From: a virus
Taxonomy: Duplodnaviria > Heunggongvirae > Uroviricota > Caudoviricetes
IMG/VR virus record: IMGVR_UViG_3300008262_000042
Span: 803-64,802 of that record
Length of the DNA: 64,000 bases
Direction: 5' to 3' (one strand)
Positions 20,705 to 40,315 of the stretch are shown in pieces (position 1 is the first letter of the stretch; every line of letters starts with the position of its first letter). A program made the position numbers and the translations under genes. The notes beneath the pieces were generated by a model that worked only from the letters and a program-made list of their open reading frames with translations, did no database searches and was not told the DNA's origin.

Positions 20705-21241
20705 TTATTTTTCTTTTGAATAATCACCGAACTCAACAATAATAGTACTTTTTCCATCTGTTCTATTTAAAGCATATTCGTAACTTGGAACAATATCTTT
20801 TGGTTCATGTAATTCAATAACTTGTATTGTTTTACACATAGATCTAAACGCATCAGAAAAATTACCCTTATGTTGATCTTGTGGATCTACTGGTCTTTCA
20901 CTACCTACTGCTACTCTTATAATTGCTTTTGGAGTGCATCTACCATCTGACATTAGTGAAAATTTATCTAAATGATTGATTATTTGATCTGTACCCATTA
21001 ATAAAAAATTCCATCTAGGTATTATAGAAACTGGTATATATCCATTTAAAGCTAATCCGTTTACTACACCGCATTGTAAATACTCAGCTACTGGAAATTC
21101 CATTTTTTTATTAGGACTAATATGTTCTAATGTATCATATAATCCGGTTCCAGCATATTCAACTGCTTGTCCTATGAATACAACCTTATCATTTAACGAT
21201 AACATAGTCATCGCTTTTTTTAACTCTTCAAAATATTTCAT
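20705..21241 (-). CDS. transketolase-like TPP enzyme, C-terminal (pyrimidine-binding) subunit
   Basis: 178 aa with the transketolase Pyr-domain pattern (FIGQAVEYAGTGLYDTL...EYLQCGVVNGLALNG); paired with the N-terminal subunit gene immediately upstream. Confidence 0.55.
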   Translation of the reverse strand: MKYFEELKKAMTMLSLNDKVVFIGQAVEYAGTGLYDTLEHISPNKKMEFPVAEYLQCGVVNGLALNGYIPVSIIPRWNFLLMGTDQIINHLDKFSLMSDGRCTPKAIIRVAVGSERPVDPQDQHKGNFSDAFRSMCKTIQVIELHEPKDIVPSYEYALNRTDGKSTIIVEFGDYSKEK

Positions 21242-21253
21242 AATTTGTATAAT

Positions 21254-22854: not shown

Positions 22855-22870
22855 TTTATAAAATATTAAT

Positions 22871-23599
22871 TTATATGTATTGATTAAAATGGGTTTTTAA
22901 TACCTCTTCTCTTTCATAATTAGTAATTCCAGTTAAATGAGCAATAAAACTTTCTTTAGTCCATTCATTTATTATTAAATTTTGTGCATTAGGTCCAGTT
23001 CGAACTGGATCATTTAACCACGTTTTAGTTTTTGTTAAACAAAGAGGAACGCTATTTAAGTATTTATGCTCTAAAATTTTAAAACAATTTACTATATCGT
23101 TATGTTGATGTATTATATTTAGTGTAATTTGTTCAGCCATAATATTATGTAAATAATATTGACTAGTTTCATAAAATTTATTGAATAAATCATTTACATC
23201 TTCTGTACGACGAATAATAAAATTCCCTGTGCTAAATCCATTTTTTCCAGCTGGACCTCCTTCATAGCATAACCAATCATATGAACTATAAAAAGTATGC
23301 TTACTATCTATCATATCATCTATAGTAATATTTGGATTTGTTATTATTGAATCTCCATCTAACCACATAACAACATCATATTGTTGTAATAATGTAAAAC
23401 ACTCCCAAGCTCTAACAAATCCTATATAAGATGTGCCTATATTTTTTTTAGTAAATCCACATTGTTCTATTTCATTAAAATGTCGTTTTATAATTAAGTC
23501 ATAACTATGTTGTTTACAATATTTTAATTTTGAATTTAATGTTAAATCTAAAACATTCCACATTGATTGATCAGCTCCAGTTACTACAACTTTATTCAT
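22871..23599 (-). CDS. putative nucleotide-diphospho-sugar transferase-like protein (242 aa)
   Basis: WLDGDSII DxD-like motif; weak. Confidence 0.3.
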   Translation of the reverse strand: MNKVVVTGADQSMWNVLDLTLNSKLKYCKQHSYDLIIKRHFNEIEQCGFTKKNIGTSYIGFVRAWECFTLLQQYDVVMWLDGDSIITNPNITIDDMIDSKHTFYSSYDWLCYEGGPAGKNGFSTGNFIIRRTEDVNDLFNKFYETSQYYLHNIMAEQITLNIIHQHNDIVNCFKILEHKYLNSVPLCLTKTKTWLNDPVRTGPNAQNLIINEWTKESFIAHLTGITNYEREEVLKTHFNQYI

Positions 23600-25242: not shown

Positions 25243-26551
25243 TAAATTTGTTTAATACAACTTCTATATAATCAATCTTTTCTTTATCTATTACTGGAGA
25301 TGTGCCTAGAAAGAATGTATCGGTTGTAACCTTTCTTGCGATTGGATATTTTTCTATTACTTCTTTTGGATCCATCAAACCCGCATACGCTGGTTGCAAC
25401 ATTATATTTCCAGCAAAATACGGTCTTGTTTGTATTTTATTAGATTCAAAAAATTTACAAATATCTGATCTTTTAAATGGAGCACCATCTTTTATAGTAA
25501 TTGGAAAAGCAAACCAATCTACATCTGCGCCTAATTGAGCTTCATGTAAGTGGAAATATTCATTATATTTAGAAAAAACATTATATAGGTTTTTATAGTT
25601 ATTTCTTCTTTTTATACCTATTTCCTCTAATTTTTCCATTTGCACTAATCCAATAGAGGCCTGTAATTCTATGGGTTTTAGATTATACCCTATTTCTTCA
25701 TATACATACTTATGATCAAATAATTCGTCTGGTATACTTGGCACCCAATTATTAAATCTGCAACCACATGCTCCATTTTCTAATAGATTCTGTTTACCAA
25801 TACAAAAACAACCTCTTCCCCATTCTCTAAAACTTCTTATAACTCTTTCTAGTATAGGATCGTCTACTGCTACAAATCCGCCTTCTCCCATAGTTATATG
25901 ATGCGCTGGATAGAAAGAACAACTTGCCATTTTACCGAAAGATCCTAAAGGTTTCCCTTCATAAGTTGAACCAAGTGCATCACAACAATCTTCAAGTAAT
26001 ACTAATTTGTATTTTTCTACAATCTCCATTAACCTTTTCATATTCGGAGGATTACCAAGAACATGCGCAAAAGTTATTATTTTTACATCTGGATTTTCTA
26101 TGCATGCTTGCTCTACTTGATCTAAATCTAAATTAAGTGTATCTAATTCTATGTCTACAAATATTGGCTTAAATCCTACTTGCAATATTGGATTTATAGT
26201 TGTTGGAAATCCAGCTATAGGCGTAATTACTTTGGTGCCTTTAGGTAAATTAGCATATCTTTTTGAAGTCATTGCTAACATCATCAATAGATTTGCGCTA
26301 GATCCACTATTTGTTAGTAAACCAAAATTTTTACCAAGTTTTTTAGGAAATTTTCTTTCAAACTTTGTAGCTTCAGCACCTAATACTAGCCACTCGCTTA
26401 ATAGAGTTTTAACAGCTACTATATACTCTGCTGAATCAAAATATGGACCTGCATATTGAACCCAATCTTCTCCAGCTTTCCATGATTTTTTGCTGTGTTT
26501 ATCTTTTATATATTGATCAACTAGTGATACTATTTCTTTTTCCGTAACCAT
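25223..26551 (-). CDS. DegT/DnrJ/EryC1-family PLP/PMP enzyme, E1 (DdhC/RfbH)-like NDP-4-keto-6-deoxyhexose 3-dehydrase
   Basis: Aspartate-aminotransferase-fold sugar-aminotransferase architecture (GSSANLLMM..., DALGSTYEGKPLGSFG). The position of the PLP lysine reads SFYPAHHITMGEGG (His instead of Lys). A Cys-rich segment GCFCIGKQNLLENGACGCRF follows. Confidence 0.65.
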   Translation of the reverse strand: MVTEKEIVSLVDQYIKDKHSKKSWKAGEDWVQYAGPYFDSAEYIVAVKTLLSEWLVLGAEATKFERKFPKKLGKNFGLLTNSGSSANLLMMLAMTSKRYANLPKGTKVITPIAGFPTTINPILQVGFKPIFVDIELDTLNLDLDQVEQACIENPDVKIITFAHVLGNPPNMKRLMEIVEKYKLVLLEDCCDALGSTYEGKPLGSFGKMASCSFYPAHHITMGEGGFVAVDDPILERVIRSFREWGRGCFCIGKQNLLENGACGCRFNNWVPSIPDELFDHKYVYEEIGYNLKPIELQASIGLVQMEKLEEIGIKRRNNYKNLYNVFSKYNEYFHLHEAQLGADVDWFAFPITIKDGAPFKRSDICKFFESNKIQTRPYFAGNIMLQPAYAGLMDPKEVIEKYPIARKVTTDTFFLGTSPVIDKEKIDYIEVVLNKFIDGKTK

Positions 26552-26558
26552 TTTTTAT

Positions 26559-26807
26559 TTATAAACTATTTAGATCTAAATTAGAGTTATTCATCTTAAT
26601 TATCAAATCCACAAGAGTGCTAATTTGTGTACTCTTTATAACATTATCGCAATTTATATTATTCCAATAATCATTGTATTTATCTCTTGGAATAGCATTC
26701 CAAACTTTACTTATTGGATTATAATGAAATATCCAATTAAATAAACAATCATTTTCTTCTGAATTTGGATATACATTTTCGTAATCCTGATAAGTATTTT
26801 GTTTCAT
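26559..26807 (-). CDS. hypothetical protein (82 aa)
   Basis: Minus-strand ORF. Confidence 0.3.
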   Translation of the reverse strand: MKQNTYQDYENVYPNSEENDCLFNWIFHYNPISKVWNAIPRDKYNDYWNNINCDNVIKSTQISTLVDLIIKMNNSNLDLNSL

Positions 26808-26810
26808 GCT

Positions 26811-27446
26811 TTATATTTTACTGTAAAAATTATTTTGTTGCTCTTGTTTAGCTATGTCTTTATTATGATGTAAACACCAATCTAAACTATCTGTAGGAAA
26901 CTCTGCTATATGAGAATAACCGACTATTCGTTCATGCACTTTTCCTTCCCATTTTATATTAACTTTATTTCTAACTATCCTACTTTGATAATCTGGCCAG
27001 TTAATTAGTCCATCAGGATCGACTCTCCAATTCCATACTTTTATATGCTCTTGTGTTAGTCCTTTAACCGTATTTGCTCTTGGTACCATGAATAGATCAA
27101 CTGGATTGCTATCTAATACTTGATGTAGATAGTACAACATATTCTCAGATAAAGTTTCGTCAGCATCTATGAAGTAAATATAATCTTTTTTACAATTACT
27201 TTTTAAATTATTTTTAAAGTCTGCGAAATTTTTATTTAGCTTATATGTTATATATCTTACTCTACTATCAGAATCAATAAGCTGTTCAATATACTTCTTT
27301 ATCGATAATGCATCGCTATCTGTACATTCATCTTGTTGAATTACAATCTCATCATTTTCTTTTATACAAGGTAACAACTGTTTAATAAGTCTTTTGAATT
27401 CTTTGTATTCGTTACAGCAAGTTATAGCGTAAGATATAGTTATCAT
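26811..27446 (-). CDS. glycosyltransferase family 2-like (211 aa)
   Basis: N-terminal ITISYAITCCNEYKEFKRLIKQL and DEIVIQQDE resemble the GT-A fold. Confidence 0.5.
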   Translation of the reverse strand: MITISYAITCCNEYKEFKRLIKQLLPCIKENDEIVIQQDECTDSDALSIKKYIEQLIDSDSRVRYITYKLNKNFADFKNNLKSNCKKDYIYFIDADETLSENMLYYLHQVLDSNPVDLFMVPRANTVKGLTQEHIKVWNWRVDPDGLINWPDYQSRIVRNKVNIKWEGKVHERIVGYSHIAEFPTDSLDWCLHHNKDIAKQEQQNNFYSKI

Positions 27447-27455
27447 TTTGATGAT

Positions 27456-27938
27456 TTATATTAAATCTAAATATTCTAATGCGCTTACATAATCTGTTCC
27501 AAAATATTGCATACTACTTGGATCTGATTTATGAGATTTGTTTTTAAATACTGGTTTCTTCTTTTCTTGTTTTGTTAATGGTATATTTTTAATTGCACAC
27601 CATTGAGCATCTTCTTTACAAGTTCCATTCATAAAAATAGTGCCTCTATCTAGTATATTAACTACGGTCGGGTACCACACTCTTCCTTCAGAATCTATTT
27701 TCTTAAGATCTTTATATAGTTCTGGCATCTCTGCTTCGAATGTTTCAAAATCAAATTCCCCTTCTCTTGCTAAATCGTTTGATTGATGTCCACAACCTAA
27801 ACACATATATGCATTGTGAAATTCATTCATAGCTATAGAGTAGCAAGCGCCTTTTTCTCCGCATAGAGGACAATCTATTAGGTTGTCTTTTACTTTATCC
27901 ATGTAACACCTCCTTTGTAGTAGTAGTAGTAGTTCCAT
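27456..27938 (-). CDS. zinc-ribbon protein (160 aa)
   Basis: CPLCGEKGAC...CLGCGH Cys pairs. Confidence 0.35.
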   Translation of the reverse strand: MELLLLLQRRCYMDKVKDNLIDCPLCGEKGACYSIAMNEFHNAYMCLGCGHQSNDLAREGEFDFETFEAEMPELYKDLKKIDSEGRVWYPTVVNILDRGTIFMNGTCKEDAQWCAIKNIPLTKQEKKKPVFKNKSHKSDPSSMQYFGTDYVSALEYLDLI

Positions 27939-28152
27939 TTGAATCTGTAGTAGTGTACCAAAAAGGCTGTCCAGGTGGGACAGTCGGAGAATATGGACTA
28001 GTCCATGGATTAACTCCTATAGGAGATGGTGCACAAGTACTGTCTACCTTGTCTACTTCTTTTATTGCCTTTTCAATATCTATTTTCATTTGGCTATCTG
28101 TTTGTGCTGCTAGATAACCTTTTAGCCAATATACAAATTGTTCGTGTGTCAT
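27895..28152 (-). CDS. hypothetical Pro/Thr-rich protein (85 aa)
   Basis: Contains a TTTTTT run encoded by a (gta)n microsatellite; overlaps the downstream ORF by 44 nt. Confidence 0.3.
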   Translation of the reverse strand: MTHEQFVYWLKGYLAAQTDSQMKIDIEKAIKEVDKVDSTCAPSPIGVNPWTSPYSPTVPPGQPFWYTTTDSNGTTTTTTKEVLHG

Positions 28153-28153
28153 G

Positions 28154-29467
28154 TTATTCTACTTTTGTAAGTTTTGGTAATTCTATTTTTTTCAATTTAG
28201 GTAACTGTAATTGAACAGGTTTTGGAAAAGTCGATAAATACTCTGAAAGTTTATCTTTCATTTTTTCCATTGAAAAGTTTGTCTTTGCATAATAGGCTTG
28301 TCTATTTGCTAAATCAGACTTATACTTATCATAGTTGTTATAAACTTGTTCTAAGGCCGTTTGTGCAGCTTTGGTATTAACTTTAAACCATTGCGATTCT
28401 GGAATTAACATATTTTCTGCGACTGCTGATCTATGGATATTTTGTAATTCCCCTGGTAACATTACGCAAAACTCTTCATTTAAGAAATCTATATGTCCTG
28501 ACCAATTTGATGCTATGATAGGTTTTTTACATACTGAGAATTCTAATAGAGGTCGGCCATAACCTTCACCATGACCAAAGTATATCATTGATTTTACTTT
28601 TGGGTGGTTATATAGATTGTTAATCTCTTCTTCAGATATTTCACCATGTAATAGATAGATATTTGGTAAATCTTTAGAGTTGACAGTATTTCTTATTTTA
28701 TCTATCATTTCTAAGAGGTCCTCTCTGTCTATGATGCTATTAGCTACTTTTGTAGTTTTTAATATTAAAGCAGGCTTATTTTTTTTATTTTTAAAAGTCT
28801 CTAAAAATATTTTTATAGTTCCAGATACATTCTTTCTATCTTCTCCAAAATCTCCTTGCAACCAATGACCAACAAATAAATAACAAAAATCTTCTTTAAC
28901 TTGACTTATTGTTTTAACTAATTTGGTATTTGTTAATTCTTTTTCTGGTATATGGAAATACTTATTAAGATCTACACCTTCAAAAAGAACTTCTATAGGT
29001 TTTTCAAGTTTAATCTCTCTTCTAACATTACCGTGATTATCTTTTTCTTGGAATTGAGAACTATTAAATACATTCTTTGCATGCTCTGAAGATACTAAAG
29101 TTAAATTCATTCTATTAACTCCGTCTATCCAAGTTGAATGTGCTATAGTAGTCTCAATACCCGCAGTTACACCAACATTCATTAACTTTCCAATTGGTTG
29201 GAATTCATTAGGTACTGTGATTTGAAACCAATAATCTGGTTGTACTGTTAGTTGATTATTTGGTAAAATAAGATCTTTTAAAAATCCCCATTCTTTTGCA
29301 TGATTTTCTATATATCCCCAACTTGTAGCTCCCCATCTTTGAGAAAGTATTTTTACATCCCAATCATCTTTTTTAAGTTCATATAGAGCCTTTACAAAAT
29401 CTCTAGCTCTTGATCCATATCCACTATTGGTATCGATAGGACAACTAATTACGCATAACGGTTTCAT
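28154..29467 (-). CDS. glycosyltransferase, GT4/GT-B-like (437 aa)
   Basis: C-terminal EGYGRPLLEFSVCKKPIIAS matches the GT4 E-x7-E donor-binding motif. Confidence 0.55.
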   Translation of the reverse strand: MKPLCVISCPIDTNSGYGSRARDFVKALYELKKDDWDVKILSQRWGATSWGYIENHAKEWGFLKDLILPNNQLTVQPDYWFQITVPNEFQPIGKLMNVGVTAGIETTIAHSTWIDGVNRMNLTLVSSEHAKNVFNSSQFQEKDNHGNVRREIKLEKPIEVLFEGVDLNKYFHIPEKELTNTKLVKTISQVKEDFCYLFVGHWLQGDFGEDRKNVSGTIKIFLETFKNKKNKPALILKTTKVANSIIDREDLLEMIDKIRNTVNSKDLPNIYLLHGEISEEEINNLYNHPKVKSMIYFGHGEGYGRPLLEFSVCKKPIIASNWSGHIDFLNEEFCVMLPGELQNIHRSAVAENMLIPESQWFKVNTKAAQTALEQVYNNYDKYKSDLANRQAYYAKTNFSMEKMKDKLSEYLSTFPKPVQLQLPKLKKIELPKLTKVE

Positions 29468-29468
29468 A

Positions 29469-30920
29469 TTAATATACTAATTTGTGTGTTATTTTTTTTC
29501 TTGGTAATTTTTCTATTTTTATGAATTCGAAGTCCTCTTTTGGCTTCCATTCACTAAAAGTTTTTTCTATAGATGATATGACATTTTTACTCATATTTGT
29601 ACTACTCATCATAGACTCATCTGATGTTGCCCAGTCTCTTCCTTTCATGCCTCTATGTATTCTATCTTCTGGAGTTAGGTTATATACATTCTCTATAGCA
29701 TTAGCCACATCTCTAAAATCGCATCTATCATCGAATATGTATGGCGTAGGTATAGAACCAACTATTGACATATTAGTAGGAAATACTGGCATTGCCCATA
29801 CTCCATGTTGTCTATATTTACCAAAATGATTAGAAGGGAAATCTTTTGTAAAATCTACCCAATTTCCTTTTTCATCTTCAAATCTAAGTTGATCTTGCAT
29901 ACCGCCTGTAACATTAGCAATGATCATAGTGCCAGCCATCATAGATTCTGTTAATGATAATCCCCAACCTTCATTAGATGATATTAACGCAGTAACGTCT
30001 GCGATATTATACATGTAATTTAATATATTAGTAGGTACCGCGCCTTGTTCAAATTTTACTTTTTGATATTCAGGATCACATAATAATTCAACTACTGCAT
30101 TAAGATTAGTTCCATTCTCATCCATAGCTTGCGTATGCAATAATAATGTACACTTCTTAGCTTTCTCTTTTCCTATGCTATCACAGAATAGTGCATATGC
30201 TGCGATAAGATCAGAAGTACACTTTCTACGAATATTTCTAGCATTATAGAAAACTACAAACTCTGGTTGATCTTCACCGAATAAGTTCTTTTTATATGAT
30301 TGTAAACCTTCATACTCCTCTTTCATAAATTCATTTATGGGGTAGAATAGTCTATCATTGATACCATGAGGAACGTAAGTAATAACTTTGTCTTTTGCTT
30401 TTTCTCCTAAAACTAATTCGTGGATATTTTTAGTTTGTTTAGATATTGACATTAATAAGTCACATGATTCATAATATGGCTTATTATATAAAGGAGCAGG
30501 ATAGTCATCCCAGATTGATAAGTATAGTATAGGTATTTTTTTTCTAATTTCATTTTCCATTTGAAATAACCACACCCAATATCTAGGATCAGTAAATAAC
30601 ATGATCGCATCGGGTTTTTCAATTTCTAGTATCTGTCTAACAATCTCTGGTGTTCCATATCCATTGCATGGATAAAGCGTCACAGAAGAGTCTGGGATAT
30701 TCATGGTCTTATTCGTATCTTCTGATAGATCAAACCTTTTGCCGTAATCTGGATGATTGATAGCAGCTCCTAAATTAACCCAATTGAATCTGTGAGAAGT
30801 GCCTATAACTATTTCTCTTGACATTGTAGCGATACCACTTGTCATTCGAAGATCGTCACTCATTAGTAAGATCTTCTTTCTTTTTGATTTTTCAATATAA
30901 CCTTCTGGTAAACTTTGCAT
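29469..30920 (-). CDS. glycosyltransferase, GT4/GT-B-like (483 aa)
   Basis: NEGWGLSLTESMMAGTMIIA matches the GT4 E-x7-E motif. Confidence 0.55.
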   Translation of the reverse strand: MQSLPEGYIEKSKRKKILLMSDDLRMTSGIATMSREIVIGTSHRFNWVNLGAAINHPDYGKRFDLSEDTNKTMNIPDSSVTLYPCNGYGTPEIVRQILEIEKPDAIMLFTDPRYWVWLFQMENEIRKKIPILYLSIWDDYPAPLYNKPYYESCDLLMSISKQTKNIHELVLGEKAKDKVITYVPHGINDRLFYPINEFMKEEYEGLQSYKKNLFGEDQPEFVVFYNARNIRRKCTSDLIAAYALFCDSIGKEKAKKCTLLLHTQAMDENGTNLNAVVELLCDPEYQKVKFEQGAVPTNILNYMYNIADVTALISSNEGWGLSLTESMMAGTMIIANVTGGMQDQLRFEDEKGNWVDFTKDFPSNHFGKYRQHGVWAMPVFPTNMSIVGSIPTPYIFDDRCDFRDVANAIENVYNLTPEDRIHRGMKGRDWATSDESMMSSTNMSKNVISSIEKTFSEWKPKEDFEFIKIEKLPRKKITHKLVY

Positions 30921-31181: not shown

Positions 31182-32087
31182 TTATTTATTTTTATCACAA
31201 AGATCTGGACTTGCATTATATGGACAATACTTGCAAGACGAAGTATTTTTTTCGTATACTCTTTCTGTATTATACTTAGCTTCTGGAGTAAAACACTCTT
31301 TTATAAAGTTCTCAAAACCTTCATAAGCCTCTTTAACCTTTTTCTTTTTATTAGCAGGAACATACTCTTGAATTCTTGAGATTGGGAATTCAGAATTTTC
31401 ATAGATCTTTCTTTTAACAATAAAGAATTTAACATCTATTTTATCTTCAGGTATATTTAATGCTTTTGAATAGAAGTGTTTATATAATAGAATTTGTGTT
31501 AATTTAACTTTGTCCTTTTTTTCTTTTTCTCCCCAACCGCGTGTTGATGTTTTTATATCATATATTGTGTATGTATCAGTATTTTTATGATATAAGATAA
31601 AATCTATATAACCTTGTATTAATACATTAGGACTGTAATCAGTTACTTGTTGTAGTACTGGGATTTCTATACCAACTAATTCTGTATCTTTCTTTGAAAA
31701 ATATTTAGATCTATTCTTTTTAAACCACTCTATAGAGGCTATTCCATCTAATGTAAATTCTTTAAGTTCTTCTCTAGTTGTGTAATGCTCATTATTATTA
31801 CTTTCTAAATCTTTTTTGTAGTTATCTACCATTCGATTCTCAAGATATTCAGATAGATTTATTTTATCAGCCGCAACTATTGATTCATTATACATTACAC
31901 TTAAATAATGTTGTAAAGTTTCGTGTAAAGAAGTACCGTATAAAAGGTGTATTCCTGGTTTGAATACCTTTTTCTTCTTTACATACGCTAAGTACCATGA
32001 GTGAGGACAGCTACTATACATAGAAAATTGACTGTAAGATACACTCTTTTGATATGCGTAATTAATTTCTATTTTACTTTTTTCCAC
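31182..32087 (-). CDS. Cas4/RecB-family PD-(D/E)xK nuclease with Fe-S cysteine motif
   Basis: N-terminal Cys (SSCPHSW); PD-(D/E)xK motifs GYIDFILY and YDIKTS; C-terminal CKYCPYNASPDLC (CxxCx8C) as in Cas4/AddB nuclease domains. Confidence 0.6.
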   Translation of the reverse strand: MEKSKIEINYAYQKSVSYSQFSMYSSCPHSWYLAYVKKKKVFKPGIHLLYGTSLHETLQHYLSVMYNESIVAADKINLSEYLENRMVDNYKKDLESNNNEHYTTREELKEFTLDGIASIEWFKKNRSKYFSKKDTELVGIEIPVLQQVTDYSPNVLIQGYIDFILYHKNTDTYTIYDIKTSTRGWGEKEKKDKVKLTQILLYKHFYSKALNIPEDKIDVKFFIVKRKIYENSEFPISRIQEYVPANKKKKVKEAYEGFENFIKECFTPEAKYNTERVYEKNTSSCKYCPYNASPDLCDKNK

Positions 32088-32334
32088 GAACTATTTGTTG
32101 TATTTTTTTAAGATATAATATGTGATCCATACTTTCTTGAATAGCATGCTCTAACCATTCATCAAGAGATAAGTCTTCCCTATCCATATTAGTTCCATAC
32201 TTCTGTTTGCCAAATGACGCTCTATCAACAAAAGAATCAATTACTGAATCTACTACTGAATCTGTTTTTAGTATAGTCCTACTATTCTCGCTTGAGAAAG
32301 TTATTGATCTAGTTTCTTTTCTAAAATCTCCCAT
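32074..32334 (-). CDS. hypothetical protein (86 aa)
   Basis: Minus-strand ORF. Confidence 0.3.
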   Translation of the reverse strand: MGDFRKETRSITFSSENSRTILKTDSVVDSVIDSFVDRASFGKQKYGTNMDREDLSLDEWLEHAIQESMDHILYLKKIQQIVRGKK

Positions 32335-32574: not shown

Positions 32575-32823
32575 TTATTGTTGTTCTATGTGTTCAGAAA
32601 AAAAGTAATCACTTTCTGGGAAATCAAATATATGAAATCTATCTGTTAATTCAAATCTACTTGAATCAAAACAATTACAAGGTGCAGGAGGATCCACTTC
32701 CATTAATAGATAATTTCCGCTATTTGTTACACCATAAATAGTGTATTCTTTACCATTTTCGAGTAGACCAATTGCACCTCTAATACACTTAACTATTTGT
32801 CCTATTTTAATGATATTATCCAT
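32575..32823 (-). CDS. hypothetical protein (82 aa)
   Basis: Minus-strand ORF. Confidence 0.3.
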   Translation of the reverse strand: MDNIIKIGQIVKCIRGAIGLLENGKEYTIYGVTNSGNYLLMEVDPPAPCNCFDSSRFELTDRFHIFDFPESDYFFSEHIEQQ

Positions 32824-33268
32824 TATTTAATTTTTTAATATGGTTATATAAATCTACTAAATTTCCATCGAATTCATTCATTATAGTTTCTAGTGCTGTT
32901 ACATTTATTTTAAAAATCTTACAGAACTCGCTTTTTAATTTTTTTAGAGTGGTTGTTTCCTCTTTTTCAAAATCTTCTATAAGCTTTCTTCGTCTTTCCA
33001 TAAATAGACATCGAACTTCGTGTTCTTGATCAGCATTTTTACAGAGTTTTAATTTATCTTGCATTAAGTAATATTCATACTCGGCTTGATAATAGTAGTC
33101 TGATACATCAAAATCACCGCGGGCAATTCTTTCATATAATGGGTACTTATTACTTAGCACTTCTCTAGACTTATATCTTCTATGCCAATAGTATTGGTTA
33201 TATGAAACAGGTGTAAGCTTTGATAACTGCTCTTCTAAAAACTCTCTCGATAGTTTTGGTAAACTCAT
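32816..33268 (-). CDS. hypothetical protein (150 aa)
   Basis: Minus-strand ORF. Confidence 0.35.
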   Translation of the reverse strand: MSLPKLSREFLEEQLSKLTPVSYNQYYWHRRYKSREVLSNKYPLYERIARGDFDVSDYYYQAEYEYYLMQDKLKLCKNADQEHEVRCLFMERRRKLIEDFEKEETTTLKKLKSEFCKIFKINVTALETIMNEFDGNLVDLYNHIKKLNNG

Positions 33269-33933
33269 TTATCATTCCATTTGATGCCTTTATTAAAATG
33301 TCTTTCGTATATATGTAAATTAGTTATTAACCAATTCATATCTCCTACTTCATAACCAGTCTTTTCTGATACTAATTCCATAAGCTTTGAAAACGTATAG
33401 AAGTCATTACAAAATCCAAACCAAAGATCTATACTTCTAGCAAATACGCTTAATTCTAATTTATTATCTTTAACATAGAAATTAAGAACCATATTACATG
33501 GCGTATCATATTGGTATCTATCTAGTTCATCTAAATCATAATGGACAACTACTGCGCGTCTAGTATTTGGATCTTTTTTAAGAAGATCTATAACACGCTC
33601 TAGTTGATTATTTTTATTCCAAAAATATCCATAATTACTATTTACTTCTGTAGTACCATCTACCATCATATTTTTCCATATCTTTGCACGTTCAGCTATT
33701 TCGCTAGCATCTCTATCACCTTTAAGATACCATTCCCACTCATAATCTGCATACTCTTGTTTAAAGTTCCTTTTTGGATTTGTTATAACTCGCTCTAATA
33801 CATTCTCAACTCCAAAGCTTATATTAAATAGTGCTTTAGTACCAGCAAAGTTTGGCTTATCATAGCGATCTTCTATATACTCGTAAAAAGCTTGGAAAGC
33901 ATGATTTGCATTTTCAAATAACATATTGTTCAA
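33265..33933 (-). CDS. ThyA-fold pyrimidine hydroxymethylase, T4 gp42-like deoxycytidylate hydroxymethylase
   Basis: 222 aa, shorter than thymidylate synthase. Blocks EWEWY, KIWKNMMVDGTTEVNSNYGYFW, DPNTRRAVVVHY, TPCNMVLNFY (nucleophile Cys), ARSIDLWFGFCND and NLHIYERHF are collinear with T4 gp42 as recalled. Asp sits at the position that is Asn in thymidylate synthases. Confidence 0.65.
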   Translation of the reverse strand: MNNMLFENANHAFQAFYEYIEDRYDKPNFAGTKALFNISFGVENVLERVITNPKRNFKQEYADYEWEWYLKGDRDASEIAERAKIWKNMMVDGTTEVNSNYGYFWNKNNQLERVIDLLKKDPNTRRAVVVHYDLDELDRYQYDTPCNMVLNFYVKDNKLELSVFARSIDLWFGFCNDFYTFSKLMELVSEKTGYEVGDMNWLITNLHIYERHFNKGIKWNDK

Positions 33934-34399
33934 TTTTTATGAATTTTTTTAATAAATCTATTCCTGATGTATCTCTATATTGATCTAAATATACAACTCT
34001 TTTTATTCCTGATTGTAATATATATTTCGAGCATTCAATGCATGGAGATAATGTTACATATAATGTTGAATTTTGCACAGCATTTCCTGTCTTTGCAGCT
34101 TTTATCACCGCATTCATTTCAGCATGGAGTACTATACTTTTAGTAATTGTGCTCATTCCAGTTTCATGTAACTCTTCGCAACAATTATCCATTCCAGATG
34201 GAGTACCATTGTAACCTATACTAATAACATTACCATCTTTCTCTATCACTGCGCCTACTTTACTTCTTTTACAATGCGATAATGAAGATACTGCAATGGC
34301 CATAGTCATATATACCATGTCAAGTCTTCTTTGTTTAGAAGACTCCTGTACTTCCAAATCCTCCGGAGCCTCTTTCTGTATTTTTTTCTGGTAATTCAT
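33914..34399 (-). CDS. dCMP deaminase
   Basis: Zinc-binding HAEMNAV and PCIECSK (PCxxC) motifs of the cytidine/dCMP deaminase family. The real start is probably at an internal Met (MVYMTMA), which reduces overlap with the dUTPase. Confidence 0.85.
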   Translation of the reverse strand: MNYQKKIQKEAPEDLEVQESSKQRRLDMVYMTMAIAVSSLSHCKRSKVGAVIEKDGNVISIGYNGTPSGMDNCCEELHETGMSTITKSIVLHAEMNAVIKAAKTGNAVQNSTLYVTLSPCIECSKYILQSGIKRVVYLDQYRDTSGIDLLKKFIKIEQYVI

Positions 34400-34772
34400 C
34401 TACTAATTCTATGTTTTCGAAGTTAATTGGAATCAATACGAATTGCATGATTTTTTGTTCTGGTTGGATAGTTTGTGGTTGATTAGATACATTGAACACA
34501 TGTATATGAATCTCTCCAGTATAATCTGGGTCTACAAGCTGAGCACCATATATGAGGCCTTGTTTTGTTGAAACTCCGCTTTTATTCATAGCGACTAGCC
34601 CATATCCATTAGGAACATCAGCTTTGATACCGCTTGGGATCAACACAGACTCACCTGGCTGCAGTGTTTTTGGTTCTTGAATATAATCTTTAGGCAAATA
34701 AAAGTCTATGCCAGCGCTGTCGGGTGTGCCTCTGGAAGGTGTCTTTACTTCTCTGATTTTTTTAATTTTCAT
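34335..34772 (-). CDS. dut: dUTP diphosphatase (trimeric dUTPase)
   Basis: Motifs AGIDF, GLIYGAQLVDPDYTGEI and C-terminal RGSGGFGSTG. Confidence 0.9.
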   Translation of the reverse strand: MKIKKIREVKTPSRGTPDSAGIDFYLPKDYIQEPKTLQPGESVLIPSGIKADVPNGYGLVAMNKSGVSTKQGLIYGAQLVDPDYTGEIHIHVFNVSNQPQTIQPEQKIMQFVLIPINFENIELVDELPEKNTERGSGGFGSTGVF

Positions 34773-35047
34773 TGTTTATTTGTTTTTCTTTTTTTGTCCT
34801 TTTTTATTTTCCATTCAACTGTTAAATATGTGCCAAGAAATGCACCGATTATCGCAGCTATTATGTAAGATTGATTCTCCATATATTTAGTCACTGTAAT
34901 AGCACTAAAAAGGTATATCATAGATCCCCATATACCAGCTTGTATACTTTTTCTTTCTTCTATTTTTATGAAGTAAAGTGTCCAGCAAATATCAGCTATA
35001 GCCATCATAATTATGACCATTATAAAAGTGAGTATGTATGTAATCAT
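34769..35047 (-). CDS. membrane protein (92 aa, 3 TM)
   Basis: Three hydrophobic helices. Confidence 0.4.
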   Translation of the reverse strand: MITYILTFIMVIIMMAIADICWTLYFIKIEERKSIQAGIWGSMIYLFSAITVTKYMENQSYIIAAIIGAFLGTYLTVEWKIKKDKKRKTNKQ

Positions 35048-35050: not shown

Positions 35051-35329
35051 TTATTTCTTTTTATTTTTTAAATAACTATCTAATGATGCCATATATGCAA
35101 CACAATCTAGATAGTTGTCTTCTTTATAATTCCAAGATGCTCTAGATAGTTTTAATGCAATTAATACATTATAAACATCAAACGCTGTAAATTCTTTTCT
35201 TGACATCTCTGAAGCGATTCTGGCAGTTTGTTCCATGCCTTCTTCAAAGGGTCCATACATACGTTCTTTTTCTTCGCCTCGCTCAAAGACGATTTCGTGT
35301 GCTTGTTCTAATATACTTTTTTCTTTCAT
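35051..35329 (-). CDS. hypothetical protein (92 aa)
   Basis: Minus-strand ORF. Confidence 0.35.
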   Translation of the reverse strand: MKEKSILEQAHEIVFERGEEKERMYGPFEEGMEQTARIASEMSRKEFTAFDVYNVLIALKLSRASWNYKEDNYLDCVAYMASLDSYLKNKKK

Positions 35330-35365: not shown

Positions 35366-36253
35366 TCAATAATCGCAGTACTTTTTAAAATCGCTAAAGT
35401 CTCCCCATACCCGATTCGAATCAATATCGCTTGGTTTTAAATTTGGCTTCCTCATCGCTGGCGCTACATTCCAGAAATAATCGCCTTGATTCCCATGTTG
35501 TTTTAATACTTCCCATCCCTTTGCGTCATAAGTTAATACACAATCAAATGGTGGGACAACTCTTGAATTTTTGGTAAAAGCTTTATCGTAACTGTAGAAG
35601 TTAGCACGACCAAGTTCTCCTTCTTGGATATTTCTAGCAACAGCGACTGCGTTGAATTGGGTTTTTGGTAAAGCTATCTGTAAAGTTCTTGATAGTACGC
35701 CTGTAGAAAATACACTCCACAATGTTTCTATATTTGTATCTTTAAAATTATCGTAAAATACTCTAACGCCACCTGCAACAACCATCTCATGCTTAAGTCC
35801 AAATGGAAGATATTTTGCTCCCATTTTTTCAGCGAACTTCTTTGCCCATATATTTGCTGTTGGCATTGCTGGAATTCTTACAAATAACGGTATGCCTCCT
35901 TCCTCTATAGCTGTTAATTGATGTTCTGATGCTTTCTCTGACGCAGGCATTACTAAGTATAGTTTTTTATTATACTTCTTAGCTAGATAGCATAGAGAAT
36001 AAGGCGCATAACCAGTTCTTGGCGCTACATAAACTAGTGCATCCTCTTTTACTTGAGATATAAAGAAATCTGCCATCTTTGTTTTAGTACCATATTGAAA
36101 TTCACCATCATCTATGACATTAAATCCGTCTATTTGCTTTGTTACGAAAGTGTAATCATGATTATAATCTTTGGTGATGTTTAGATAGTACTCGAGATCT
36201 CTACCATTTGATTGGTCTAGACTGTCTTTTGTAGTGCACTTATTTAAGAACAT
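35366..36253 (-). CDS. hypothetical protein; possible PLP-dependent fold-type II (ACC deaminase/D-Cys desulfhydrase-like)
   Basis: Weak resemblance of KQIDGFNVIDDGEFQYGTKTKMADFFI to the KRDD...GGNKxRKLEFL PLP-lysine region; tentative. Confidence 0.25.
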   Translation of the reverse strand: MFLNKCTTKDSLDQSNGRDLEYYLNITKDYNHDYTFVTKQIDGFNVIDDGEFQYGTKTKMADFFISQVKEDALVYVAPRTGYAPYSLCYLAKKYNKKLYLVMPASEKASEHQLTAIEEGGIPLFVRIPAMPTANIWAKKFAEKMGAKYLPFGLKHEMVVAGGVRVFYDNFKDTNIETLWSVFSTGVLSRTLQIALPKTQFNAVAVARNIQEGELGRANFYSYDKAFTKNSRVVPPFDCVLTYDAKGWEVLKQHGNQGDYFWNVAPAMRKPNLKPSDIDSNRVWGDFSDFKKYCDY

Positions 36254-36316: not shown

Positions 36317-36340
36317 AAAAAAAGCACCGAAGGTGCTTTT
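36317..36340 (-). terminator. rho-independent terminator (bidirectional-looking)
   Basis: Stem agcacc/ggtgct with loop gaa, flanked by an A-run and a T-run; on the minus strand it is followed by TTTTTTTAT; 25 nt after the 36363..36719 stop. Confidence 0.6.
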
Positions 36341-36785: not shown

Positions 36786-37547
36786 TTACACATATTTCCA
36801 TATATAACCACCAGCTATTTTTACTTTTCCTCTACAACAAGCGCTGATAGCTATCGATCCATAAACTTTTAAAGCTTCAGAAATAGCATTATATGTAGTA
36901 ATATACTCTCCATCTTTAGAGTACTGATTAATTTTTTTAGACATGCCATTATTACCTCCTCTGGATTTAATGGCGTTTTCAGGTTTACTCATACCGTTAT
37001 TTTTTCCACTAAACATCTCTTTGTATTTATCTTTTCTTTCTGGTGTATATGATTCTTTAATTTTTTTACGTCCCTCATCATTCATTTTCCACCCGCTCCA
37101 GTCTTTATCTCGTCTTTCTTTGGTCCATATTAATTTTATTCTATTCTCAGGTTTTTTATTAAAGTGATTATCACCAGATATACTTTTAGAAAACAGTATT
37201 CTAGCCTCTTCATATTCTTTAGAATTGGGAATGTATCTATTTCCATATCTATCTTGATTACACATTCCCCAAAAAGATCTTGTTAGTTTAATATTATTTG
37301 AATATAAGTTCGCTAATATTCTATGAGCTAAAAAATGTTCTCTAGCGGTTAAAGGAACTATATTTGGGTGATTTAAGTCATAAGCATGACCTTTTCCTCC
37401 CATACACTTAGGAGTTATATGATGTCCCTCATAGTATACACCTAAATCTCCGTTAGTTTTTTTCCATAATTTCGAATTAGTTTTTCTTATTTCTAATTCA
37501 TTTTTTGCTCTTTGACAAATTTCATTATATATCTTTTTATAGTCCAT
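36786..37547 (-). CDS. HNH homing endonuclease with NUMOD-like repeats
   Basis: HNH motif GHHITPKCMGGKGHAYDLNHPNIVPLTAREHFLAH; C-terminal repeated NGMSK modules typical of free-standing phage homing endonucleases. Confidence 0.7.
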   Translation of the reverse strand: MDYKKIYNEICQRAKNELEIRKTNSKLWKKTNGDLGVYYEGHHITPKCMGGKGHAYDLNHPNIVPLTAREHFLAHRILANLYSNNIKLTRSFWGMCNQDRYGNRYIPNSKEYEEARILFSKSISGDNHFNKKPENRIKLIWTKERRDKDWSGWKMNDEGRKKIKESYTPERKDKYKEMFSGKNNGMSKPENAIKSRGGNNGMSKKINQYSKDGEYITTYNAISEALKVYGSIAISACCRGKVKIAGGYIWKYV

Positions 37548-37667: not shown

Positions 37668-39290
37668 TTATATTCCCATCATTCCATTCATAGGATTTTT
37701 ATTATTATCATTTTTATCTTCTACAGAAAAAACAACCGATTCTGTTGTGAGGATTGTACCTGCTACTGATGTTGCATTACGTAGTGCAGTAATTACAACT
37801 TTAGTTGGATCTATAATACCAGCTTCTATAGCGTTAACAATTTTATGATTTTTTGCATCATATACTTCACCTTCGCCTGGTACTCTATTCCACCAATCCT
37901 CAATACCTGCGTTTGATAGGATCGTTTTAAATGGTGCCTGAAGTGCCTCTCTTACGATGTCTTTTGCGATTGTTGAAGTAGTGGTGTGTTCATTTACATA
38001 ATTCAAAGATAGCCTATATAATACACTGCCGCCTCCAGGAACAATACCATCAGCTAATGCAGCTTTTGTGGCAAATAGCGCGTCTTCTAATCTATCTTTT
38101 TTCTCTTTTATTTCAATATCAGAGTTTCCTCCTACATTAATGATTGCTACTCCGCCTACCATTTTGCCTAAACGTTCTTGTAACTTTTCTTTCTCAAAGA
38201 ATGATGTCGCTCTATCAATTTGATCTTTGATTTCAATTGCTCTACTTTCAATAGCTGCTTCATCTCCTTTTCCGTCTACGATTGTTGTTTCTTCTTTTGA
38301 TACATTAACTAATTTACAAGATCCTAATTGTGCACTTAATTGAGTAACATTAATTTTATCTAGTTTATGACCTTTATCTTTTGAGATTACTTGCGCTCCT
38401 GTTAAAATTGCAATATCTTCTAAAATTAAAGTCTTTCTTTCTCCAAAATCTGGAGCTTTAACTGCACACACTTGCACTATTCCTCTCATTTTGTTTACAA
38501 TCATAGTAGCTAACGCTTCTTCTCCAAAGTCTTCTGCTACAATAAGCAACGACCTATTATTAGTATTAGCAATCTGTAAAACTGGAAGTAGCTCTTGTGC
38601 AGTAGAAATTCTACCATCATAGAGTAATATATAAGGATTTTCTAAGTTCGCTTGCATAGTAGTATTATTCGTAACAAAGTACGGGGATTTATAACCTCTA
38701 CTAAATTGCATACCTTCAACTACTTCTAAACTAGTTTCACCACTTTTAGATTCTTCAATAGTAACTACGCCATCTCTTCCAACTTTTTGTATTGCTTCTG
38801 AGATTAGGTAACCCACTTCTTCATCATTATTTCCAGAGATTGTTGCAACTTGTTTAATTTGATCTTCTGTAGAAATATCAATCGAAACTTTCTTAACTTC
38901 TTGAATTACTTCTTGAATTAAATTATCAATTTCATTTTTAACTTCAACTGCATTATTCCCCTGTCTAATTTCTTTTAAGCCAGCTTTTACCATTGTTGAA
39001 GCAATTATAGTTGATGTTGTTGTACCATCTCCTGCTTCATTAGCTGATTTAATAGACACCTGTTTAACTAATTGTGCTCCAATATCCTCAATATCATCTT
39101 CTAATTTATTAAATGACTTTGCAACGCTTACGCCATCTTTTGTAATTTTTACTTCTCCATTTTGCTCTCTAATCAAAACAGTACGTCCTCCTGGTCCTAA
39201 TGTAGAAGATACTGATGCGTTTAATTTTTCTACTCCAGCTAATAGACGTTCTTTAAGATCTTGTCCAAAAACATTTTTTGTTGTACTCAT
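37668..39290 (-). CDS. groL: chaperonin GroEL (Cpn60)
   Basis: 540 aa; N-terminus [10 protein letters not shown]...; GroEL-wide collinearity including GDGTTT and AVKAPGFG-like AVKAPDFG; Gly/Met-rich C-terminal tail NPMNGMMGI. Confidence 0.9.
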
Positions 39291-39296
39291 AATTTT

Positions 39297-39590
39297 TTAG
39301 TTTTCTAATATTGCTAATATTTCTGTTTCTTTGATTAAGATATAATCTTCGTTATTTAATGTGATTGCCATAGATCCCATTTTAGGAATTAATACTTTTT
39401 GGCCAGGTACTAATTTTGTTTTGTAATAATCACCTCTATGCCAATTGTAAGTATCACTAGCGCTTACAACTTCGCCCATTTCAGGTTTTTCTTTACCCAT
39501 GTCTGGAATAACAATGTTTCCATAGGTAACCTCTTGTTCTTCTATTTTTTTTAGAACTACGATTCCATTTAGTGGAGTTAACATATTCAT
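39297..39590 (-). CDS. groS: co-chaperonin GroES (Cpn10)
   Basis: 97 aa, immediately upstream of groL; LNGIVVLKKIEEQEVTYGNIVIPD and GEVVSAS pattern of GroES. Confidence 0.75.
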   Translation of the reverse strand: MNMLTPLNGIVVLKKIEEQEVTYGNIVIPDMGKEKPEMGEVVSASDTYNWHRGDYYKTKLVPGQKVLIPKMGSMAITLNNEDYILIKETEILAILEN

Positions 39591-39602
39591 TTTTATTTTT
39601 GT

Positions 39603-39818
39603 TTATTTGGTTAATAACTCTTGTTCTTTTTCTTCAACTAACTCTAGATCTTCTATTTTATCACAAAAGTATAATTTGCCATCTTTTCTAAAGACACTAT
39701 TAGCATCTAGCCATTCTTTAACTAGATCTACGTCTTTAACGTAAGATTCCTCATACACTTTCTTTAACAGAAATAGGTCTTCGTTAATTTTTAAAAATTG
39801 TTTGCAGATTGAAAACAT
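39603..39818 (-). CDS. hypothetical protein (71 aa)
   Basis: Minus-strand ORF. Confidence 0.3.
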   Translation of the reverse strand: MFSICKQFLKINEDLFLLKKVYEESYVKDVDLVKEWLDANSVFRKDGKLYFCDKIEDLELVEEKEQELLTK

Positions 39819-39844
39819 AACTTAAGCACTCAGGAAGATACGTA

Positions 39845-40315
39845 TTAATTGATTTGTACTTTTTTTACTTGTTTTTGTTCAGAGAAAGGAACGCTAATAG
39901 TTAGTAAACCTTTATCTAATTTTGCGGTTAATTTTGATAAATCGAATTTAGATGCTAATTTCCATCCTAAATCGAATGAACCTTTTTTAATTCCTTTGTA
40001 AATTACTTGTGTGTCTGGAGTATCTTTCTTTTGATACGTAATTCTTAGCGTATCGCCTTCAGTTAAGATTTCAATGTCTTCTTTGTTTAAACCAACCGCG
40101 GCGACATCAAATACGATTCCTTCTTCAGTTTCGTAAATGTCTGTGGGGTGTGATACTTTTTGTAATAAATCTGTGAATGTGGATGATGTGTTGAAGAAAT
40201 CTCTCCACAATAGATCGAACTGATCCAATGAAAATGGTCTAATGTACGTCATGTCGTTTTGTTTTGTGTTCCCGTTATAGGTGAACTGTTTAATAATTGT
40301 TTTTTTAAAATTCAT
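39845..40315 (-). CDS. small heat-shock protein (Hsp20/alpha-crystallin)
   Basis: 156 aa; alpha-crystallin-domain-like EDIEILTEGDTLRITYQK...GLLTISVP. Confidence 0.7.
   Translation of the reverse strand: MNFKKTIIKQFTYNGNTKQNDMTYIRPFSLDQFDLLWRDFFNTSSTFTDLLQKVSHPTDIYETEEGIVFDVAAVGLNKEDIEILTEGDTLRITYQKKDTPDTQVIYKGIKKGSFDLGWKLASKFDLSKLTAKLDKGLLTISVPFSEQKQVKKVQIN

Follow-up and report, generated by a model that had tools for sequence, protein, structure and literature searches.

We examined a 64-kb stretch of DNA (the window; positions 803 to 64,802 of IMG/VR record IMGVR_UViG_3300008262_000042) that covers about one third of the roughly 180-kb genome of an uncultivated freshwater phage, and focused on a short gene of the thymidylate synthase (TS, ThyA) fold together with the genes around it. 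The phage belongs to a lineage of large phages (about 160–190 kb, 30% G+C) that encode GroEL and GroES; exact or near-identical copies of window proteins were found on contigs of up to 179,597 bp. The minus strand carries every long open reading frame (ORF) of the window, including three adjacent ones that form the center of this study:

33265..33924, minus strand: ThyA-fold enzyme of 219 amino acids counted from its ATG, a predicted folate-dependent deoxycytidylate 5-hydroxymethyltransferase
33914..34399, minus strand: deoxycytidine monophosphate (dCMP) deaminase of the ComEB / T4 cd type (PF00383, 2.6e-25; phrog_174, 2.5e-55), with alternative ATGs at 34318 and 34303
34335..34772, minus strand: deoxynucleoside triphosphate (dNTP) pyrophosphatase of the trimeric dUTPase family (PF00692, 7.2e-23, positions 2–129 of 129; phrog_135, 1e-39)

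An earlier interpretation made from the letters alone (the sequence-only reading) had placed a dCMP deaminase and a dUTPase next to the ThyA-like gene, and both are indeed encoded directly upstream of it. Judging from the active-site residues described below, we put at roughly 0.65 the probability that the ThyA-like ORF makes 5-hydroxymethyl-dCMP (hm-dCMP), in which case virion DNA would carry 5-hydroxymethylcytosine (hmC) in place of some or all of its cytosine, possibly in decorated form.

Active-site signature of the ThyA-like protein

Read from a TTG at 33933, the ThyA-like ORF has 222 amino acids; gene callers and other assemblies prefer the ATG at 33924. We used the 222-residue numbering, which coincides with that of E. 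coli from position 143 to 209. The protein matched Pfam Thymidylat_synt (PF00303, 1.6e-29) and PHROG 160 (2.6e-41). In phmmer searches of the PDB it matched bacterial TS (8e-22) and the T4 dCMP hydroxymethylase 1b49 (2.3e-15), the latter collinearly over residues 58–215 against 53–224, which agrees with the collinearity to T4 gp42 that the sequence-only reading had described. Its active-site residues are E65, Y101, R125/R126, D143, C146, N147, R166, S167, D169, D177, H207 and Y209. The catalytic set is present: E65, Y101, C146, R166, S167, H207 and Y209 are invariant with T4 gp42 and E. coli ThyA (E. coli Glu58, Tyr94, Cys146, Arg166, His207, Tyr209). The Cys of TPCNMV, which had been named as the nucleophile, aligns with the nucleophile Cys146 of E. 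coli.

Substitution of Asp for Asn at position 177 is associated with a dCMP substrate (PMC13326640, PMC8670742) and has also served as a criterion elsewhere (PMC5175136). In the ungapped phmmer alignment of the stretch RSIDLWFGFCND with E. coli RSCDVFLGLPFN, the counterpart of E. coli Asn177 (LPFN177I) was the Asp of FCNDF, eight residues past the Asp169 of RSID; T4 has FRND here (T4 Asp179). The sequence-only reading had also assigned an Asp to the specificity position, and this much stood. The residue it cited, in ARSIDLWFGF, did not, being Asp169, a column that is invariant in TS, T4 gp42 and the deoxyuridine monophosphate (dUMP) hydroxymethylases. We then set the protein beside enzymes whose specificity is known or strongly implied (T4 gp42, VPE25, Xp12, SPO1 gp29, ViI-like, M6-like and E. 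coli ThyA). Position 177 was Asp in T4 gp42 (hmC), VPE25 (bisulfite-resistant cytosine) and Xp12 (5-methylcytosine, 5mC), and Asn in SPO1 gp29, the ViI-like and M6-like enzymes (all 5-hydroxymethyluracil, hmU) and E. coli ThyA. An alignment with gp42, the SPO1 enzyme and ThyA had been proposed as a check in the sequence-only reading; its outcome was an Asp at the specificity position and the absence of the TS C-terminal segment.

Two further features distinguish the protein from TS. Position 143, three residues before the Cys and a Leu in E. coli, is Asp in the window protein (YD143TPC; SDFMC in T4), with the caveat that the loop around it is one residue longer than in E. coli. An acidic residue at this position is typical of T4-like hm-dCMP synthases (PMC13326640). 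In addition, the protein ends 7 residues after the TS alignment stops at query residue 215, just beyond the His207/Tyr209 block, whereas the residues past the aligned core number about 50 in E. coli TS and the Xp12 enzyme, and 22 in T4 gp42. The best score against the NCBIfam TS equivalogs was 88 bits versus cut-offs of 108–576, and the protein fell short of every one. D143, N147, D169 and D177 occurred in all of the full-length relatives retrieved (140/140), and conservation to this extent is not chance. In metavirome data, contigs with modified cytosine are reported to be enriched in Asp177, along with domains of the dCMP deaminase and PRA-PH/MazG types (PMC8670742). The identification of the ORF as a folate-dependent deoxycytidylate 5-hydroxymethyltransferase, although a prediction from sequence, is well supported by published residue criteria.

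By the chemistry of TS and T4 gp42, Cys146 would attack C6 of dCMP, Asp177 would protonate and recognize cytosine N3/N4, and the one-carbon unit of 5,10-methylene-tetrahydrofolate (CH2-THF) would move to C5. Because the C-terminal arm that serves hydride transfer in TS is missing and position 143 is acidic, water would be expected to capture the exocyclic methylene, yielding hm-dCMP and tetrahydrofolate (THF). From the signature we predict this conversion by the ThyA-like enzyme (dCMP + CH2-THF to hm-dCMP + THF) with high confidence. The products of the two overlapping upstream genes would reshape the pool of pyrimidines in this phage of 70% A+T, the dUTPase-family enzyme by converting dUTP, and possibly dCTP, to the monophosphate, and the deaminase by diverting some dCMP to dUMP, for dTMP production by a thymidylate synthase encoded elsewhere. 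Phosphorylation of hm-dCMP would then require a kinase, which we did not find in the window, and the family-A polymerase of the phage would incorporate the product; post-replicative decoration of hmC is speculative.

Neighboring genes and related loci

Homologues of the ThyA-like protein numbered 798 at E <= 1e-10 among the proteins searched. We fetched 69 IMG/VR loci (L011–L079) for comparison; many are near-duplicates across samples, such that counts from them are not independent. The remaining genes of the cluster in the window were as follows:

32816..33268, minus strand: o150, a conserved 150-amino-acid protein that overlaps the ThyA-like stop codon by 4 nucleotides
34769..35047, minus strand: mem92, a small hydrophobic protein of 92 amino acids (79 elsewhere), with sub-threshold Pfam matches only
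35051..35329, minus strand: DUF6378 protein, 92 amino acids, all-alpha (PF19905, 3e-12)
35366..36253, minus strand: pyridoxal phosphate (PLP)-dependent fold-type II enzyme, 295 amino acids (phrog_7093, 6.9e-22; no Pfam match)

On the minus strand the genes run mem92, dUTPase, dCMP deaminase, ThyA-like and o150, with overlaps of 4 nucleotides (mem92/dUTPase), 65 nucleotides (dUTPase/deaminase), 11 nucleotides (deaminase/ThyA-like) and 4 nucleotides (ThyA-like/o150). Because neighboring genes overlap, the arrangement suggests that the chain from mem92 to o150 is one translationally coupled unit, and o150 is probably coupled in this way to the ThyA-like gene. A scan of 31–38 kb found promoter-like sites to be no commoner than in shuffled sequence, and terminator-like hairpins to be only modestly in excess (5, versus a shuffle mean of 2.4). 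One palindromic hairpin with a 9-bp stem (AAAAGCACC GAA GGTGCTTTT; 36320..36340) is found in the 109-nucleotide gap immediately upstream of the PLP gene, and may be a terminator or a transcription-unit boundary.

The deaminase, whose translation contains the HAE and PCxxC zinc motifs, is called at 129–134 amino acids in other assemblies; every close relative has its gene next to the ThyA-like one, whereas marine relatives with 45–49% identity are without it. In the dUTPase all five motifs are visible (AGIDF, NKSG, VDPDYTGE, KIMQF, RGSGGFGSTG), and the protein scored 99.6 bits against the NCBIfam dut equivalog, just below the cut-off of 103. We detected mem92 in just 11 of the 69 related loci, chiefly those of the closest relatives, and its membership in the module is uncertain. 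The o150 protein had no Pfam, PHROG or NCBIfam match; in many loci of the family a homologue 38–72% identical follows the ThyA-like gene immediately downstream.

DUF6378 was the most constant partner of the ThyA-like gene among relatives 45–98% identical; almost all of the related loci have it, and it was often directly adjacent to the ThyA-like gene. Its AlphaFold model (predicted local distance difference test score, pLDDT, of 91.5) has five helices, and no significant PDB match was obtained by profile search or by Foldseek (best E 0.76). Published reports place DUF6378 next to a ThyX gene in another phage, and do likewise for the Pfam family DUF1599 ('nucleotide modification associated domain 1'). 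One related locus (L023, 5247–5816) contains an in-frame fusion of DUF6378 to a MazG-like domain. The idea that DUF6378 is the missing MazG-type dCTPase found no support: hhalign against the MazG-like family of the relatives was negative, as were the PDB profile search and Foldseek.

The PLP gene lies three genes upstream of the ThyA-like gene. Its product falls in the same PHROG as M6 gp52, a full-length member of phrog_7093 (2.2e-159). The two proteins are only about 18–21% identical, but hhalign of the PLP family profile against M6 gp52 gave a probability of 90% (E 1.5e-6). Lys57 of the PLP protein is invariant and aligns with M6 gp52 Lys36, the proposed Schiff-base lysine, and the C-terminal motif PPFxCxxxYDAKxW...FWN is common to both proteins. 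The AlphaFold model (pLDDT 84; predicted template modeling score, pTM, 0.84) had threonine deaminase, serine racemase and CysK as its top Foldseek matches (E about 1e-9; probability 1.00 for threonine deaminase and CysK). M6 gp52 was shown experimentally to decarboxylate Calpha-glycinyl-thymidine in DNA, which gives 5-aminoethyl-dU (PMC8989533). Across the family the PLP protein is 73–89% identical, above the conservation of the ThyA-like protein. The gene stays in the cluster of marine relatives whose ThyA-like proteins are 45–47% identical, and one subclade of relatives is without it.

Closer homologues of the PLP protein, encoded by Erythrobacter phage R6L and Microcystis phage Mae-JY30, score above the Pfam threshold for PALP. 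In these phages (R6L gp1, L008; Mae-JY30, L009:4087-5678) the PLP domain is fused to, or directly follows, a ParB / N6_N4 DNA methyltransferase. The same pairing of PLP domain and N6_N4 DNA methyltransferase was present in 79 of 80 IMG/VR loci (L080–L159), and the module is widespread among phages and prophages. Among the 150 best cluster representatives there were 44 multidomain proteins, several of which have the PLP domain inserted inside the ParB-methyltransferase. We know of no described function for this PLP-ParB/N6_N4 methyltransferase module, although no literature search was aimed at it. There are thus three distinct settings in which the PLP subfamily is linked to enzymes that modify DNA, and the possibility that hmC is processed further is raised, not established, by the presence of the PLP gene here.

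Across the related loci the conserved order was PolA, Hsp20, GroES, GroEL, a variable slot, (PLP), DUF6378, NTPase, dCMP deaminase, ThyA-like, o150, ..., PD-(D/E)XK nuclease, GT483 and GT437. The sugar-island genes GT483 and GT437 keep their synteny among close relatives but are not companions of the ThyA-like gene in distant ones. Sixty-five loci cover the NTPase slot; it held a trimeric dUTPase in 37, a MazG-like protein (PF03819) in 27, both in none and neither in 1. This swap is a non-orthologous displacement. The T4 gp56 dCTPase matched the all-alpha dUTPase_2 family, which belongs to one superfamily with MazG. Because of this kinship, and of the co-occurrence of PRA-PH/MazG domains in the metavirome data, our results suggest that the slot supplies dNTP-to-dNMP conversion for the pathway.

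The region between GroEL and DUF6378 is a mosaic, in which we found X290 with X321 and PLP, X290 with PLP, X290 alone, or PLP alone, as in the window. In one relative, L073, the two additional genes have the following coordinates:

L073:6708-7580: X290, with homologues in many of L015–L079; no Pfam or NCBIfam match
L073:7577-8542: X321, likewise with homologues in many of L015–L079; no Pfam or NCBIfam match

Over its N-terminal 120 residues X290 is weakly similar to the beta-glucosyltransferase of T4 in the N-domain of the latter (hhalign 91.6%, E 8e-7), a likeness in sequence profile that we treat as a lead and not as proof; the X290 profile had no match in the PDB. The remainder of X290 contains GDSHS / DxxH-like motifs. 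X321 was found only where the PLP gene is present. Hidden Markov models of X290 and X321 had no match in the window, and neither gene product showed a relationship by hhalign to the kinase or the aGPT-Pplase of M6 / PaMx11-like phages.

Elsewhere in the window we noted the following features:

37668..40315, minus strand: Hsp20, GroES (97 amino acids) and GroEL (540 amino acids) in a row, adjoining the family-A DNA polymerase; a trio kept across the phage family
36786..37547 and 16050..16784, minus strand: homing-endonuclease-like ORFs of the HNH/NUMOD type
17888..30920, minus strand: sugar island (Pfam), with at least 8 glycosyltransferase-domain ORFs

The replication and chaperone genes recognized by Pfam included PolA, class II ribonucleotide reductase, DnaB, FEN, gp32-like, RecA-like, GroEL/GroES and Hsp20. 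The homing-endonuclease-like ORF at 36786..37547 lies between GroEL and the PLP gene; only some relatives have it, at times elsewhere. The large sugar island that the sequence-only reading had pointed out was found at about 17.9–30.9 kb, beginning 2.3 kb from the ThyA-like gene. Its transferases, of generic GT-A/GT-B kind, are of the GT1, GT2, GT4, GT10 and GT34 types and include a GT2-GT10 fucosyltransferase fusion; the island also encodes a DegT aminotransferase, a GDP-mannose-4,6-dehydratase-like protein, an epimerase/reductase and two adjacent thiamine pyrophosphate-enzyme fragments (E1_dh, Transket_pyr). Its target could be DNA, the virion or the host surface, and a role as DNA-glycosylation machinery is neither supported nor excluded by our data. 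Between the island and the cluster lies o86, an 86-amino-acid ORF (32074..32334, minus strand) with the motif KYGT..DR.DLS.DEWL.H and no family match. Homologues of o86, about 45–48% identical, occur near the ThyA-like cluster of distant marine relatives on the opposite strand (L073:13286-13561 (-)).

Predicted product and alternative outcomes

We sought the partners that a T4-type pathway would need, scanning with Pfam practically every ORF of 90 or more amino acids on the minus strand, and with phmmer and reference proteins all 431 stop-to-stop ORFs. The Pfam scan of the window found no MazG/gp56-type dCTPase, dNMP kinase, second ThyA/ThyX, dihydrofolate reductase (DHFR), P-loop DNA kinase or aGPT-Pplase. 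With T4 gp56, the T4 and VPE25 beta-glucosyltransferases, M6 gp51/53/54/55 and PaMx11-like gp46/49/50 as phmmer queries, only the dUTPase matched in the window. The companion 5-hydroxymethyl DNA kinase and aGPT-Pplase of the M6 pathway were thus not found in the window by either method. The sequence-only reading had reported no glucosyltransferase of the T4 type, which our searches bear out, and had advised a search for a dCTPase and an hm-dNMP kinase, neither of which was found within the 64 kb. Look-ups with the proteins at the window ends recovered, beyond those ends, only tail/structural genes or small ORFs of no assigned function. The sequence-only reading had proposed that hmC replaces cytosine. 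The signature supports the enzyme assignment behind this claim; the step from the enzyme to hmC in virion DNA is something we infer only, as is complete replacement, since the window is about one third of the genome and the pathway partners were not found there.

Several observations weigh against the production of hmC by this phage or against its full use in place of cytosine. No dCTPase, dNMP kinase or DNA glucosyltransferase was recognized in the window, and the NTPase in the slot scored as an essentially canonical dUTPase; because of this, exclusion of dCTP, and hence full replacement of cytosine, is unsupported. The ThyA-like protein is only 24% identical to T4 gp42 and nearer to bacterial TS by phmmer, so that we place it in a separate Asp177 lineage without a characterized close member. 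Its best isolate homologue is 45% identical and belongs to Bacteroides phages with automatic annotation, and megablast of 20 kb of the window against 50,697 phage records returned no DNA-level match. Position 147 (His in E. coli) is Asn, as in the dUMP hydroxymethylases. Lastly, the rule for position 143 is imperfect, since this residue is Asn, and not hydrophobic, in the 5mC-making Xp12 enzyme.

We also weighed other outcomes for the locus. That the protein is some other member of the ThyA family would fit the automatic annotation of all relatives as 'thymidylate synthase', the bacterial TS that are its best PDB matches and the Asn at position 147, but each candidate of this kind was rejected and we consider the idea very improbable. 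Canonical TS conflicts with Asp177, with the wide failure of the TS equivalog cut-offs and with a C-terminus that lacks the final 50 residues. A dUMP hydroxymethylase conflicts again with Asp177, and in the enzymes of SPO1, ViI and M6 a loop is longer by one residue and the C-terminus is extended by about 100–150 amino acids; the SPO1, Bue1 and PA_LZ03 proteins show G(T/M/A)xxxN and long tails, and the ThyA-like protein has neither. Flavin/O2-dependent 5-hydroxy-dCMP synthases of the RB69 gp48 type are marked by D169N (PMC13326640); RSID169 is kept in the window and in 140/140 relatives, which argues against such an activity. Ser167 and Arg126' denote a deoxyribonucleotide substrate, as opposed to Ala/Lys in the CMP-preferring MilA of nucleoside-antibiotic synthesis (PMC5175136), and the window protein has Ser167/Arg126 (R166-S167, R125-R126), such that a CMP hydroxymethylase was also rejected. 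A dCMP methyltransferase, which would reductively methylate dCMP to 5-methyl-dCMP and lead to 5mC DNA as in Xanthomonas phage Xp12, is a further candidate: Asp177 and Asp169 are common to the Xp12 enzyme, which is likewise encoded beside a dCMP deaminase, and N177D mutants of TS are reported to yield 5-methyl-dCMP (PMC8670742). The Xp12 enzyme, however, has 289 amino acids, keeps the TS-like C-terminal segment and has DHFR adjacent, whereas the window protein ends 7 residues past the TS alignment, and no DHFR was found in the window. Truncation of the TS C-terminus abolishes hydride transfer, which counts against methylation. Position 143 is also Asp, as in T4 gp42, yet because the rule for this position is not clean, we argue against a methylase chiefly from the lack of the C-terminal segment and of a DHFR in the window. 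We judge methylation to be improbable.

A different fate for hm-dCMP is its conversion by the deaminase to hm-dUMP, with the result that thymine and not cytosine would be replaced. The 11-nucleotide overlap of the deaminase and ThyA-like genes, which are probably translationally coupled, would suit this route, as would the dUTPase and the activity of characterized relatives of the PLP enzyme on 5-hmdU-derived bases (PMC8989533). All of the characterized hmU phages compared, however, use an Asn177 dUMP hydroxymethylase, so that a path to hmU through hm-dCMP would have no precedent; in marine relatives the ThyA-like, MazG and PLP genes persist with no deaminase gene nearby, and no dTTP-excluding enzyme was seen. 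We give the hmU route very little weight. A further proposal extends the hmC interpretation and is not an alternative to it. That is, hm-dC would be an intermediate that is derivatized with an amino-acid-derived group and then processed, for instance decarboxylated, by the PLP enzyme, as the cytosine counterpart of the thymidine hypermodification in M6 and ViI. The evidence for such hypermodified cytosine is the kinship to M6 gp52 (shared PHROG, Lys57 and C-terminal motif, with a confident fold-type II model), the persistence of the PLP gene in one cluster with the ThyA-like, NTPase and DUF6378 genes where ThyA-like identity is as low as 45–47%, the link of the subfamily to N6_N4 DNA methyltransferases (79/80 loci) and the X290/X321/PALP mosaic, which is as expected of interchangeable decoration genes. 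Set against this, neither the 5-hydroxymethyl DNA kinase nor the aGPT-Pplase, both of which M6 and ViI require, had a homologue that we could find in the window; the window also lacks X290 and X321; one subclade keeps the ThyA-like core without a PLP gene; identity to M6 gp52 is just 18–21%; and the literature searched yields no cytosine counterpart. On balance we regard hypermodified cytosine as unlikely, and likewise its amino-acid-type version, a kind of DNA hypermodification known so far for thymidine only, in which the Asp177 enzyme would give 5-hmdC and the PLP enzyme would help build an amine-bearing side chain. It would need transferases unrelated to the kinase/aGPT-Pplase pair, for which X290 and X321 are candidates; if cytosine hypermodification were true, the X290/X321/PALP mosaic would be a set of swappable hmC-decoration modules.

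If the ThyA-like enzyme does supply hmC, an abundant uncultivated lineage present in many IMG/VR samples would have a non-canonical cytosine, and the T-even strategy would reach far beyond enterobacterial hosts. Such a base would alter how this DNA behaves in virome work based on restriction, bisulfite or nanopore methods. The residues compared here (143, 169, 177, Ser167/Arg126 and the C-terminus) provide a checklist that sorts virome 'thymidylate synthase' annotations by substrate and product. Three leads also follow: a hypermodification-type PLP enzyme beside a cytosine-type hydroxymethylase, DUF6378 as a constant partner, and the dUTPase/MazG swap in one slot. The literature searched gave no description of the cytosine-side PLP/hydroxymethylase pairing, the DUF6378 partnership or the dUTPase/MazG displacement. 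The sequence-only reading had missed what is less usual in the cluster, namely the PLP enzyme and DUF6378.

Comparison with known systems

A close parallel is T4 gp42 (EC 2.1.2.8; PDB 1B5E, 1B49), which has the same ThyA fold, Cys, Asp177, Asp143, Asp169, Ser167, Arg126 and shortened C-terminus; T4 also encodes a dCMP deaminase. The enzymes differ in overall sequence (24% identity), in the length past the core (22 residues in T4, 7 here) and at position 147 (Thr in T4, Asn here). The sequence-only reading had likened the cluster to the T-even dNTP-synthesis complex. This is apt for function but not for position, as T4 genes 42 and 56 are 9 kb apart and the T4 partner genes are dispersed; its all-alpha dCTPase gp56, dNMP kinase gp1 and glucosyltransferases have no counterpart found in the window. 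A complete T4-type system was thus not shown.

Enterococcus phage VPE25 shares an Asp177 ThyA-like gene that adjoins a trimeric dUTPase gene, and experiments found its cytosines to be modified, as judged by their resistance to bisulfite (PMC4999554). Its protein is 31% identical to ours, with a longer C-terminus and an adjacent T4-like beta-glucosyltransferase, and its cluster is without dCMP deaminase, DUF6378 and PLP genes. The cytosine-modified contigs of MetaGPA (PMC8670742) also combine Asp177 with dCMP deaminase, and relatives of the window have the MazG/PRA-PH-type enzyme seen there. Those contigs are associated with a carbamoyltransferase and 5-carbamoyloxymethylcytosine, whereas the window has no carbamoyltransferase and has a trimeric dUTPase instead of a MazG-type enzyme. 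The Xp12 enzyme resembles ours in Asp177, Asp169 and the adjacent dCMP deaminase, and differs in its TS C-terminal tail (289 amino acids), Asn143, neighboring DHFR and product, 5-methyl-dCMP. The 5-hydroxy-dCMP synthases RB69 gp48 and DLP3 gp80 (PMC13326640) have the ThyA fold, N177D and an acidic residue at 143, but carry D169N and use flavin and O2; the window protein and 140 relatives keep Asp169.

For the PLP ORF the point of comparison is M6 gp52, like ViI gp226 a PLP-dependent decarboxylase of thymidine hypermodification, which matches it in PHROG 7093, fold type II, the aligned lysine, the C-terminal motif and a position beside a pyrimidine hydroxymethylase gene. At about 18–21% identity the two are distant, and the partner hydroxymethylase is uracil-type in M6 and cytosine-type here; the M6 kinase and amino-acid transferase were not found here.

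The closest cultured phages are Bacteroides phages BF503P2 and BF486P2, which encode a short ThyA-like protein 44–45% identical to ours, with FCND and with dut nearby. They differ in genome size (~53 kb) and in having two Asp177 paralogues that flank dut; in BF503P2 (L001) these ThyA-fold paralogues are at 9118–9924 and 11998–12678, both with Asp177. A tblastn search with the PLP protein as query did not return either phage from the phage collection, Pfam recognized none of the three ORFs that we scanned between the paralogues, and the literature searched contained no report on the DNA chemistry of either phage. In Agathobaculum phage AB434P2 (L007), the gene at 3838–4500 is annotated as a deoxyuridylate hydroxymethyltransferase, yet has Asp (FPYD) at the Asn177 position; judged by this residue, the annotated substrate is probably wrong. 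We concluded that the ThyA-like protein is not an orthologue of gp42, but adds a new lineage to an enzyme class that is already known, in a genomic context for which MetaGPA had given a statistical description.

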